Of a stretch of DNA of 56,253 bases, positions 22,322 through 29,009 are shown piece by piece. This stretch comes from Eledone cirrhosa (Eukaryota). A program made the position numbers and the translations under genes. The notes under the pieces were generated by a model. It was not told the origin of the DNA. It saw only the letters and a list, made by a program, of their open reading frames with translations, and did no database searches. Location: assembly GCA_964016885.1 (NCBI GenBank), contig CAXHJY010000634.1, forward strand, positions 1 through 56,253, read 5' to 3'. The first letter of the stretch is position 1, and every line of letters starts with the position of its first letter.

Positions 22322-22590
22322 AGCGGCGATGAATTAGTTTTGCGAGGTTTTTTATATGAGATCGTGTGTCGAAACAGATATTGTTATATTTGGGGAGGGT
22401 CATATTTGCGTAATATTGCCAGAATTAATAACAGAACACACTCACTGTTTGGTTGGTTTTCGCTTCTCGCTGTCTTTTATATATATATATCTGCGATCTA
22501 ACTTACTCGGTCCTCAATGTTGCCATTGACTGACCGGCGGTCAAAAATAGTACAGGTACAATATAGACAAACACATATATATATAGTTTA

Positions 22591-22632
22591 CATAAATCTT
22601 TCGTTGCACATCTGCAACATCGTCAGTGGTGT
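22591..22632 (-). ncRNA. Minimal hammerhead ribozyme (family B)
   Basis: Reverse complement of the 28760-28800 motif. Confidence 0.7.
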
Positions 22633-22901
22633 TATATTCATTTTCCTCCTGTTGTGTTGTATGTCTACGCCATTTTTTTTTTTTGTTCAGTCTGTCTATA
22701 TATTTATTTATTTATTTGCTTGTTTGTTTATCTTATTTTATTTTGTCTTCTTTGCGCATGCGTTTGCGTGTGTGTATAGTGTTATGTGTGATGTGTGACT
22801 AGTGTGTATAGTGTTGTGTCTGCTGGGTGACTAGTGTGTGTTTATGTGCTTGTGTATGTATTTATTTATCTTATTTTATTTAATTTAATTTACTTATTTA
22901 T

Positions 22902-24879
22902 TTATACTTCTCTTAGGTCAGTGTTGTTTGTTTGGGTGTTGTTGTTGTTCCACTCATTCTTTCTGTTTAGCTTTGGTCTTCTAATTTCTATTTCACTGGC
23001 CTCTCTGATTTGCCTATCTGCTGGGTCATTCCTATGTTTAGATATTATTCTAATTTCTATGTTGTCTATGTTACCGTCATGATGTTGTCTAGCATGTTCG
23101 TATAGTACTGACCCGTTTTTTCGTCCTTTTAGTTCCCCCCAGTGTTGGTCTATCCTTTCACCTATGCTACGAGCTGTCTCACCTATGTATGTTGTTGTCG
23201 TGTTTCTGCAAGTACCCTCTGTACATCTTATGCTATAGACTACGTTTCTAGTTTTACAGTTTATCCGGGGGTTCACCTTACATATGATACATTTCCTATT
23301 GGTACAGTGGGTTTTCTTAAAAGGGTAGGTTTTGCTGATCAGGGATTTTATGGTGGTTCCTGGCTTTTCTACCACCTTTATTTTTAAGTGGGTCTTTCTC
23401 AGGGCCTTTCTACACTGGTTAGCTAATTTCCCTCCAGGGGTGGCGTCCACAAACATGACACTCTGATATCTCTGGTTGTCGTACCATGATGTGGCCTTCC
23501 CTATCTTATGTCTAGCCCTATCTAAGCTATTCCATGATTTGCTCCTGTATAGTGGGCAAATTCCTTTCATGTCCAGTTCTATGAGGGTCTTATACTTTTC
23601 CATGGCTCCTTCGTATACTCTGACTCTGTCTCTTTGGTTGTAGCCAGAGAACTGCATGCGGTTGATGAAGTGTTGGATGTGTCCTTCCATTTCTGTTGGG
23701 TCGCACATGCTGGACACATTCTTCATCACTCGTACCAAATCTGCGATCAGAATATTAAACTTAGCACTACTGGACATTGCTGAGTTTTTGAGTATCAGGT
23801 ATTTGGAGGCCATGGGTTTAGCATAGTGTGAGTGGAGAATTTGGGCTCTCTCGTCTATAGTGTTAATCCAGAGTTCTGTGTCTAATACAGGTAGTCTATT
23901 GTTAGGGTGTTTGGAAGGGAAGTCTATAGTTACAGTTATACTCTGGTGTATGGAATTAGCTATCTGCTGGATGCTTTCCATCGTGCTACGTTCTAAATCA
24001 AACTTGTTAGTGCTCTCTAGTGGGGGTGTTCTTATAACTATATTGATATCGTCTACATAACGAGAGTACATGATGAGGTCTATGGAGCTTTCATTAAGGA
24101 GATCTTTAAGTCTCCTTTCCCACCATACCATGAAAAGGTTGGCAACATCGCCAGCTATGCTGACGCCGTTGGCTGCTCCCTCATTTTGGGTGTAGATTTT
24201 CTCATTGAACTTAAATATGTGGCCCTTTAGGGTAGTTTTGATACTAGCCCCTATTGCATGTGCGACCATTTTTCTTACCTGATCAGTGTTTTGGGGGGTC
24301 CGTATAGCTTTGGTCCACCCAATCCACCTTCCTATGGGAGTCTTTTTAGCCATTGAGGTTATGGTGGGGGGTCTACCTCTTATAGGTCTACTCGGGCAGA
24401 GACATCTAAGGTCATGGCTGTCTAGGTAGTCAGTGTCGTAGGTAAGTCTAAGTAGGAGGCCCAGTTCGTCTGTGTCGACGTCGCAGAACTCCACCTCACT
24501 CTCAATGATCATCTCCACACATCTTTTCACAGCAAAATCAATGTTAATGGATGGGTACAGTGACACCACATCCATGCTGCCTATTATGCAGTTGGATAGG
24601 CTCCTGTTTTTGTTGCACTCACTGATTCTGCTGAGGAGGTCCTCTGTACTTTCACATACATCAGGGGACATCTTGATTATGGGGCGTATAACCATTGAGA
24701 GGAAGTAGGAGATCCTGTAGTTGCTAGCTATATTAGCTCCGCATACGGGTCTTGTTGGTGGTCCTGTTGTCGGGTCGTCGACTGTCTTGTGGTCTTTGCG
24801 GAGCCCATACAAGGGTGGTATGCCATTGTTAGACGCCTGGAAGTTGTTGGCAGTGTGTCTGCTTGGCTTTAGGATGTCA
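22902..24879 (-). CDS. 5'-truncated PLE RT + GIY-YIG ORF (open, no native start)
   Basis: Nearly identical to the C-terminal 660 or so aa of the forward copy; the track start at 24905 reads through the junction. Confidence 0.88.
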
Positions 24880-27800: not shown

Positions 27801-28490
27801 AAGACCCTCATAGAACTGGACATGAAAGGAATTTGCCCACTATACAGGAGCAAATCATGGAATAGCTTAGATAGGGCTAGACATAAGATAGGGAAGGCCA
27901 CATCATGTTACGACAACCAGAGATATCAGAGTGTCATGTTTGTGGACGCCACCCCTGGAGGGAAATTAGCTAACCAGTGTAGAAAGGCCCTGAGAAAGAC
28001 CCACTTAAAAATAAAGGTGGTAGAAAAGCCAGGAACCACCATAAAATCCCTGATCAGCAAAACCTACCCTTTTAAGAAAACCCACTGTACCAATAGGAAA
28101 TGTATCATATGTAAGGTGAACCCCCGGATAAACTGTAAAACTAGAAACGTAGTCTATAGCATAAGATGTACAGAGGGTACTTGCAGAAACACGACAACAA
28201 CATACATAGGTGAGACAGCTCGTAGCATAGGTGAAAGGATAGACCAACACTGGGGGGAACTAAAAGGACGAAAAAACGGGTCAGTACTATACGAACATGC
28301 TAGACAACATCATGACGGTAACATAGACAACATAGAAATTAGAATAATATCTAAACATAGGAATGACCCAGCAGATAGGCAAATCAGAGAGGCCAGTGAA
28401 ATAGAAATTAGAAGACCAAAGCTAAACAGAAAGAATGAGTGGAACAACAACAACACCCAAACAAACAACACTGACCTAAGAGAAGTATAA
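24879..28490 (+). CDS. PLE polyprotein: N-terminal domain, Asn-rich linker, RT, Cys-rich linker, GIY-YIG endonuclease
   Basis: Uninterrupted frame of about 1200 codons; PTDKSGR, LYGLRKDHK, PTRPV, DVVSLYPSI, GAAIG, YSRYVDD, NVVYSIRC..YIGETARSIGER..RQIREA..LN; the track 'M' at 24951 is TTG. Confidence 0.95.
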   Translation, partial: NICFDTRFHIKNLAKLIHRRYGISLCQAERLLKDTVFCYIKTTITTEQIRFLKHCVSSKTYTTNISKQVNNLLLNKTQAERLKHTITVNMKRTTYTKVNALYRQKRINGKEIRNLITANERDDFMSVIRRETKYAQNECCRHFKKKLEWMNKKKLQERKIEYSQKYPDNIDNIRMSDVKLPEEFTNDHTVNIYGNTLISEQEQQILKLPPKFAIYKKINPMECKTELEKCFTKIRWNAKVNNNNNNNGSSNTNNNSGYRNNSHNHNNGRKVRNSDNGNNTSDRQNNNNHNNNNNRNVNHRHSNSDHSSNNGNNTNNNNNNNHSGNNGNSTCSNINKNKKHNNSNNHNGRNSSNNNNNNGEVNNNTSSNHNNNNINANDRNNNNHHDNNNSNTHNYDDRNNDNPLEKLFFNPADKTYKMGNIYPTRLPFNKRVCIPQQIDDETEAQFTIARNKIRQVVDRYTMRQSRPEAQQLGIKPVEGLVSLKQRTRDGEVVCLPTDKSGRMSIDSMPNYIEAMQPHITNTSEVAQLTHDGREKILNAHMMMWTDILKPSRRTANNFQASNNGIPPLYGLRKDHKTVDDPTTGPPTRPVCGANIASNYRISYFLSMVIRPIIKMSPDVCESTEDLLSRISECNKNRSLSNCIIGSMDVVSLYPSINIDFAVKRCVEMIIESEVEFCDVDTDELGLLLRLTYDTDYLDSHDLRCLCPSRPIRGRPPTITSMAKKTPIGRWIGWTKAIRTPQNTDQVRKMVAHAIGASIKTTLKGHIFKFNEKIYTQNEGAAIGVSIAGDVANLFMVWWERRLKDLLNESSIDLIMYSRYVDDINIVIRTPPLESTNKFDLERSTMESIQQIANSIHQSITVTIDFPSKHPNNRLPVLGTELWINTIDERAQILHSHYAKPMASKYLILKNSAMSSSAKFNILIADLVRVMKNVSSMCDPTEMEGHIQHFINRMQFSGYNQRDRVRVYEGAMEKYKTLIELDMKGICPLYRSKSWNSLDRARHKIGKATSCYDNQRYQSVMFVDATPGGKLANQCRKALRKTHLKIKVVEKPGTTIKSLISKTYPFKKTHCTNRKCIICKVNPRINCKTRNVVYSIRCTEGTCRNTTTTYIGETARSIGERIDQHWGELKGRKNGSVLYEHARQHHDGNIDNIEIRIISKHRNDPADRQIREASEIEIRRPKLNRKNEWNNNNTQTNNTDLREV

Positions 28491-28759
28491 ATAAATAAGT
28501 AAATTAAATTAAATAAAATAAGATAAATAAATACATACACAAGCACATAAACACACACTAGTCACCCAGCAGACACAACACTATACACACTAGTCACACA
28601 TCACACATAACACTATACACACACGCAAACGCATGCGCAAAGAAGACAAAATAAAATAAGATAAACAAACAAGCAAATAAATAAATAAATATATAGACAG
28701 ACTGAACAAAAAAAAAATGGCGTAGACATACAACACAACAGGAGGAAAATGAATATAAC

Positions 28760-28800
28760 ACCACTGACGATGTTGCAGATGTGCAACGAAAGATTTATGT
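28760..28800 (+). ncRNA. Minimal hammerhead ribozyme in family B pseudo-LTR
   Basis: CA-CTGACGA-T-GTTGCA(GATG)TGCAAC-GAAA-GATT-TA-TG: core and stem II clear, stem I weak; same position as the family A HHR. Confidence 0.7.
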
Positions 28801-29009
28801 AAACTATATATATATGTGTTTGTCTATATTGTATCTGTACTATTTTTGACCGCCGGTCAGTCAATGGCAACATTGAGGACCGAGTAAGTTAGATCGCAGA
28901 TATATATATATAAAAGACAGCGAGAAGCGAAAACCAACCAAACAGTGAGTGTGTTCTGTTATTAATTCTGGCAATATTACGCAAATATGACCCTCCCCAA
29001 ATATAACAA

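Follow-up and report, generated by a model that had tools for sequence, protein, structure and literature searches.

A one-unit copy of a Penelope-like element in Eledone cirrhosa that begins and ends at a reverse-transcription start site

We analyzed a 56,253-nt stretch of Eledone cirrhosa DNA (contig CAXHJY010000634.1; hereafter, the window) and identified at 22309-29023 a single insertion made of two head-to-head pieces of a Penelope-like element (PLE). One piece, the forward copy, measures 4132 nt (24878-29009) against a unit of 4129 nt and spans +21/+23 to +23 from the ATG of the open reading frame (ORF), i.e., from one occurrence of a short start site of reverse transcription, designated T1, to the next. 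The 5' end at T1 is the sole unusual feature of this element and is probably not random. The explanation that we favor, and to which we give slightly better than an even chance, is that the reverse transcriptase (RT) moved along a linear template and stalled after one unit at a T1 site that was already occupied. Papers are cited by their PMC identifiers.

Architecture of the insertion

The features of the insertion are as follows; T2 is the second, long-tail start site.

22309-22322, plus strand: left target-site duplication (TSD), 10-14 bp, last 4 nt common with the T2 end, in a TA-rich minisatellite
22319/22323-24879, minus strand: inverted 5'-truncated arm, 2.56 kb, ending at T2 (+81 to +85)
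22319-22380, minus strand: tail of ~60 nt (+24 to +85), present at the outer end of the arm only
22401-22403, minus strand: ATG of the ORF in the arm, continuous through T1 into the tail
22591-22628, minus strand: hammerhead motif, arm copy
24878-24879, no strand: CA microhomology at the head-to-head junction
24878-29009, plus strand: forward copy, one 4129-nt unit plus 1-3 nt, T1 to T1
24879-28490, plus strand: ORF, codon 8 to stop
25595-26085 (approximate), plus strand: Asn-rich low-complexity segment in the N-terminal part of the ORF
26300-27900 (approximate), plus strand: predicted telomerase-like RT domain, YVDD near 27333
28086-28450, plus strand: CX4CxxC linker and putative GIY-YIG-type endonuclease (VVY...YIG, inner Cys pair, conserved R, H, H, E, N), assigned from motifs as defined in PMC8557442
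28714-28722, plus strand: conserved AAAATGGCG motif, possibly near the RNA 5' end
28762-28799, plus strand: minimal type I hammerhead motif, core at 28764, predicted cut after 28797
28987-29009, plus strand: first 7 ORF codons plus 2 nt, ending at T1
29010-29023, plus strand: right TSD

An earlier note on this DNA had described a forward unit whose end, joined to its start, reproduces the continuous sequence of an inverted 2.5-kb arm attached through CA, and this description was borne out. The forward copy matches the uninterrupted sequence of the arm back to 24878 (CAATATC...) and onward to 29009 (...AAATATAACAA), with an overlap of 3 nt; CA is common with the arm, which leaves 1-3 nt. Complementarity between the arm and the forward copy extends to 24879/26513 and no further. 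At its outer end it continues past T1 into the ORF start and terminates ~60 nt deeper in the ORF than the forward copy. A TSD, CATAAATATACATA, encloses both arms together, and the last 4 nt of it are common with the arm end of the element. The TSD call is weaker for lying in a TA-rich minisatellite, but joining the two flanks gives back an ordinary-looking repeat unit. Because the TSD brackets the whole structure and the joined flanks restore a repeat unit, it is one insertion; two separate insertions are ruled out by the single TSD. Both the TSD and the outer-end positions T1 and T2 are newly found here. The T1 context of the element (28997-29009) resembles its own TSD (29010-29022).

The ORF is open over 24873-28490, with a stop at 24870, codon 8 starting at 24879 and the first Met at residue 92. 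As the earlier note had stated, its first 7 codons lie downstream of the hammerhead: the ATG of MTLPKYN is at 28987 in the forward copy (and at 22403, minus strand, in the arm). An in-frame start provided by the arm is ruled out by the stop at 24870. The earlier note had drawn attention to the start codon at the 3' end; this is the normal layout of PLEs, in which a pseudo-long terminal repeat (pLTR) carries the first 12 codons, an inverted pLTR lies next to it, a tail is found on one side, and a TSD and Asn-rich inserts are present (PMC3846280); an inverted arm is also part of the typical layout in PMC8557442. Thus, all four of these features (start codon within the pLTR, inverted arm, tail on one side only, Asn-rich insert) are on record for Penelope elements.

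The 3' ends and copies of a sister family

The outer ends of the insertion are at +23 from the ATG for the forward copy (T1) and at about +81 to +85 for the arm (T2). All five PLE 3' ends found in the window, which belong to two families, fall at T1 (2) or T2 (3), and each of the two head-to-head insertions carries one T1 end and one T2 end. These positions agree with the tail signature of two start sites already published for PLEs. The comparison loci, both of a sister family, are the following.

4893-5463, no strand: head-to-head palindromic insertion, left arm ending at T2 and right arm at T1
11470-14752 (left bound approximate), plus strand: 5'-truncated copy ending at T2

The second of these is degraded (internal stop and frameshift) and shows ~72% DNA and 66% protein identity to the element. 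The 3' ends of the element are ordinary, i.e., they are the normal RT start sites of the family, and therefore only the 5' end needs explaining. The earlier note had taken the coincidence of both ends at one nucleotide as a pointer to a circular or site-specifically cut concatemeric template. That it points to a circle does not follow, as the 3' end is a normal RT start and a tandem RNA, a template jump and a circle would all return the RT to T1.

The sister palindrome is near-perfect, and both of its arms start no more than 1 nt apart at the conserved AAAATGGCG motif, ~60 nt upstream of the hammerhead core and ~95 nt upstream of an intact hammerhead cut site. This shared start suggests either a fixed RNA 5' end or a fold-back. 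Since the palindrome begins at a fixed point upstream of an intact hammerhead, uncut linear RNA fits it better. Within the window the AAAATGGCG motif, which we take to be YY1-like, occurs only at the five PLE ends.

The 5' end at T1: boundary or chance

The stop rate of the RT was estimated at 0.0002-0.0006 per base (contig depths, run X3), and the chance that a 5' end falls within 4-10 nt of T1 at 0.07-0.6% per long copy. A second junction came from a double-digest restriction-site-associated DNA (ddRAD) run, in which a joint links arm position 23829 via TTAG to 24878 (96 reads, one start) and a variant of the same joint meets the element at 24885 (42 reads). The 52-nt side of this joint ends at the next AATT site. 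It represents a second head-to-head junction and starts at +21. A partial precedent is found in Drosophila, where solo ORFs flanked by two 34-bp tail repeats and TSD-flanked copies without a pLTR occur (PMC2377424); such solo ORFs are therefore monomers starting at T1. They resemble the forward copy in being full-length with a 5' end at the tail start, but they end at T2 and carry the tail at both ends, whereas here the forward copy ends at T1 and T2 lies on the 2.56-kb inverted arm. The literature was searched with few subscription papers in reach, and no exact T1-to-T1 PLE monomer was described in what was available.

The earlier note had proposed that the boundary is not a random truncation. 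This part of its reading receives support from the low chance of such an end, the +21 junction and the Drosophila monomers (PMC2377424), which make a non-random 5' end probable; the circular template or ribozyme with which it had been coupled is not indicated.

The same two-ended insertion could also have arisen by chance 5' truncation, with the forward cDNA ending at +21 to +23 by luck, aided by CA, or within the scatter of twin priming. Under twin priming near T2, with a window of 60-100 nt on either side, such an end has a chance of 2-3%, and the case was picked from a very large scan. The chance for plain truncation given above, the ddRAD junction at +21 and the Drosophila precedent (PMC2377424) speak against it, and we consider chance truncation rather unlikely.

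Several points nevertheless weigh against a boundary at T1. The stop rates are rough, as they derive from contig depths in one run of another organism. The ddRAD piece measures 52 nt, has a single read start and may be tail-only, and one such match among 7 partner ends near the 3' end has a 10-23% chance. The read comparison used 22310-25560 as reference; its listing comprised 15 of 179 joints, together with 40 of 413 variant rows and 24 of 1493 loose ends. Among the listed joints, 9 of the 10 of inversion type (all but the ddRAD joint) end at scattered positions, and the rows listed show no accumulation of starts or loose ends at 24878-24880. The prediction that other copies would share the start nucleotide is thus matched by one ddRAD junction at +21, and the other 5' ends are mostly scattered; further T1 junctions may lie among the remaining joints. 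Family depth falls steadily and steeply from the 3' to the 5' end. On a tandem RNA, twin priming should make the cDNA stop at T2, 60 nt before the point that it actually reached. In addition, a scan of many windows will yield some 1-in-500 coincidences, and the case for a stall comes from a single locus and one junction that is ambiguous.

We also scanned metagenomes and found 80 related loci, the first 49 of which were checked for repeats and 17 inspected more closely. Full-length monomers with flanking sequence and a 5' end that could be mapped were absent among these, and therefore the metagenome contigs do not test the T1 boundary. Six of the 49 contigs (L002, L007, L009, L019, L020 and L022) carry terminal repeats of 28-130 nt, and three of the terminal-repeat contigs open within ~130 nt of the ORF start. 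Another contig, L001, contains a direct repeat of 936 nt that extends into a second ORF start and a coding repeat with a 105-nt period in the N-terminal region.

A proposed insertion pathway

Experimental data on a related system are available for PAc, a Poseidon element of Anolis carolinensis (PMC11167929). The purified PAc protein, a predicted dimer, cuts and extends both strands, and its RT starts at two internal sites that bound the genomic tail. In PAc, ORF sequence is required in the template downstream of the start sites, which places the beginning of RT at a pLTR-ORF junction. PAc resembles the present element in having two RT start sites within the ORF start, in the cutting and extension of both strands and in its AT-rich targets. 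It differs in belonging to another clade, which lacks the Zn linker, and in the position of its upper start (+111 to +118, versus +23 and about +83 here). In its available text this study maps RT starts only and does not address where the cDNA stops.

By analogy with this in vitro work, the insertion would begin with a staggered cut in TA-rich DNA, consistent with the observed TSD. The nick in the bottom strand would then prime synthesis at T1 and that in the top strand at T2, with a primer homology of 4 nt. The T2 cDNA would stop after 2.56 kb at an unremarkable site, and the T1 cDNA would copy the full unit and halt on meeting T1 again, where bound protein or the cDNA:RNA hybrid begun there may stand in the way. 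Finally, the two cDNA ends would join through CA, the junction seen in the assembly. The most likely template is a tandem transcript in linear form, or else a pLTR-ORF-pLTR RNA on which the RT jumped; the pathway is compatible with a covalent circle but does not require one. Since a whole unit was copied from T1, the template must have been a tandem RNA, a pLTR-ORF-pLTR RNA with a jump, or a circle. Each of these brings the RT back after one unit to the T1-T2 region, where protein or cDNA may sit.

The proposed pathway resembles the twin priming (5' inversion) of L1, in which both nicks prime, head-to-head cDNAs join by microhomology and the forward copy has its 5' end close to where the second priming took place. 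Second priming in L1 occurs at an arbitrary site, and the two arms represent different parts of the RNA. In contrast, the second site here is a fixed site of the family and the arm duplicates the 3' 2.5 kb, and therefore a tandem, jumped or circular template is needed.

Template and hammerhead ribozyme

Stem II of the hammerhead ribozyme (HHR) shows two compensatory pairs relative to the sister family (motif identified by hand; covariation on 4 distinct rows). An Rfam search of 28600-29009 gave no HHR match, and a search of the whole window gave microsatellite-driven microRNA noise among the matches listed. Folding of the T1-T2 region revealed no stable structure (z +1.38 and +0.78); for 24878-25020, z was -1.84.

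These features bear on a circular-RNA explanation, in which the HHR cuts a tandem transcript, the monomers ligate, and RT from T1 goes one lap and runs into its own start. The 1-3 nt overlap is exactly what this explanation predicts; an HHR with a covarying stem II is present, PLE circles have been proposed (PMC4209133), and the terminal repeats of the six metagenome contigs could reflect circles. However, such self-closing contigs fit collapsed tandems equally well, and L001 carries the direct repeat noted above. The sister palindrome, unless it is a fold-back, starts upstream of an uncut HHR. In the available text of PMC11167929, insertion proceeds normally when the HHR of PAc is mutated, and RNA-seq reads neither start nor terminate at the cut. 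The Drosophila monomers with a tail at both ends (PMC2377424) run past their T2 start as far as T1, an outcome not expected from self-collision. We therefore regard a circular template as unlikely. It is equally improbable that T1-to-T1 monomers in general are the footprint of one RT lap on circular RNA, with pLTRs formed only when the RT displaces its start and runs on. The ribozyme link drawn by the earlier note likewise finds no support, as the predicted cut is 212 nt from the forward-copy boundary and uncut linear RNA suits the sister palindrome better. This distance rules out that the element ends at the ribozyme cut, as copies of a circular-RNA-templated (retrozyme-like) element would, although an internally primed circle would not need such ends.

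A boundary at T1 could also be produced at the DNA level if the element's own endonuclease nicked a longer-than-unit cDNA at T1 and thereby reduced a concatemer to a single unit. In favor of this, the T1 context CCAAATATAACAA is similar to the TSD CATAAATATACAT, PAc cleaves at AT-rich sites in its own ORF-pLTR junction and recognition by the D. virilis endonuclease depends on the tail (PMC11167929), and endonuclease resolution has been proposed for tails (PMC8557442). Yet the resemblance was found by inspection between AT-rich strings, and in vitro mapping assigns the tail ends to RT starts rather than cuts (PMC11167929), making a site-specific cut very unlikely. A stall at an occupied T1 on linear RNA thus remains the explanation that we prefer.

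Comparison of the arms and age of the insertion

The arm and the forward copy are 99.64% identical over 2502 nt, with an additional 65-nt tail match. They differ by 7 substitutions (5 coding, 1 in the untranslated region, 1 in the tail) and by one 2-nt difference in poly(A) length. Five of six coding differences are non-synonymous, as expected for unselected change. At 5 of the 7 sites (22360, 22556, 24169, 24663 and 24856), the letter of the forward copy accounts for ~99-100% of the family depth; the two changes private to the forward copy affect nearly invariant residues (positions 879 and 1011 of protein P0001).

Such differences also bear on a possible assembly artefact, either a fold-back read or a collapsed tandem. 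The locus-specific junction was not among the listed joints, and permuted PLE contigs of A. vaga are suspected collapses (PMC3846280). However, letters common to both arms (e.g., at 24401) are missing from the sequencing runs compared, and therefore these runs probably lack the locus. The arms have private letters on either side and different ends (T1 and T2), the TSD surrounds the whole, and the sister family shows a like layout; moreover, a collapse that removed a whole unit would not produce the coincidence at T1. An artefact is, in our view, scarcely credible.

Both arms derive from like templates and are young. Divergence per arm is 0.14%. If the calibration quoted in PMC13282606 (JC distance of 0.09 = 25 million years) applies, the insertion is roughly 0.4 million years old, or less if some of the changes are RT errors. 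The element is a real, recent and probably inactive copy of a known class.

Protein and family assignment

Among named proteins, the closest match comes from Octopus vulgaris (68% identity). A Pfam search of P0001 returned 0 families, and a sequence search of PDB gave weak RT matches only. The RT-endonuclease part was modeled with an AlphaFold pLDDT of 91.6, and the top 6 Foldseek rows were TERT structures (E 1e-9 to 3e-7, TM 0.31-0.36), indicating a telomerase-like RT as in endonuclease-containing (EN+) PLEs. The C-terminal domain (VVYSIRC...C...YIGET), in which C, C, H, H, R, E and N are conserved in homologue alignments, is a candidate GIY-YIG endonuclease with CCHH, recognized at the motif level only, without a profile or fold match. 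It is preceded by a linker, C1071-x4-C1076-x2-C1079, that is invariant across the homologues aligned. A CX2-5CxxC linker before GIY-YIG with CCHH defines Neptune, and the linker is present in Nematis as well (PMC8557442). For each of the three insertions of the element's clade in the window, the 3' end lies in a TA-rich repeat, which fits (TA)n-type microsatellite targeting of Neptune. As its DKS and RW motifs are atypical, the element may be called no more than Neptune-like, by these linker and CCHH definitions.

The element shares with canonical EN+ PLE units (A. vaga Pen2a; D. virilis Penelope form C) the TSD, the adjacent inverted 5'-truncated copy and one-ended tail, as well as first codons in the pLTR, an HHR and a microhomology junction (PMC3846280, PMC8557442, PMC2377424). 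The Asn-rich insert is common with A. vaga elements, where it occurs at other ORF positions. In contrast, the tail is ~60 nt rather than 30-40 nt, and the direct 5' pLTR is 1-3 nt rather than about 200 nt or more. A pLTR region with HHR, ORF start and optional tail is present, as in EN+ PLEs, and the partial-tandem direct 5' pLTR needed for expression is absent from the locus apart from the 1-3 nt overlap. PLE copies without a pLTR are known in the class (PMC2377424), and the missing 5' pLTR marks an inactive copy rather than non-membership in EN+ PLEs. Lacking both an upstream direct pLTR and a start codon, this copy was likely dead on arrival.

Other features of the window

At 17458-17997 (minus strand) lies part of a further GIY-YIG endonuclease, which has a Zn linker and belongs to another PLE family. 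Two 99%-identical long interspersed element (LINE) RT segments, presumably CR1/L2-like, lie inverted 8.9 kb apart (34583-36066 and 44929-46412), with further fragments at 44038-44718. A repeat of ~500-740 nt is present in three copies (8225-8938, 16314-17040 and 18093-18573; 93-97% identical, one inverted) beside TA microsatellites. A short non-microsatellite island at ~21790-22010, in the left flanking repeat, shows by eye features of a tRNA-like short interspersed element (SINE).

Implications

According to the available text of PMC2377424, no obvious mechanism is known for regeneration of the partial tandem in PLEs. The exact unit length of the forward copy is a useful lead on pLTR formation, although it is one case with a partial precedent and does not distinguish a circular template from the other candidates. 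If 5' ends accumulate at T1, a stop that coincides with the copy's own start would point to self-collision, whereas a stop that is always T1 would point to a fixed roadblock or a cut. Should the circular-template explanation prove true, such monomers would be the genomic signature of a long-proposed circular intermediate and would explain how pLTRs are regenerated.

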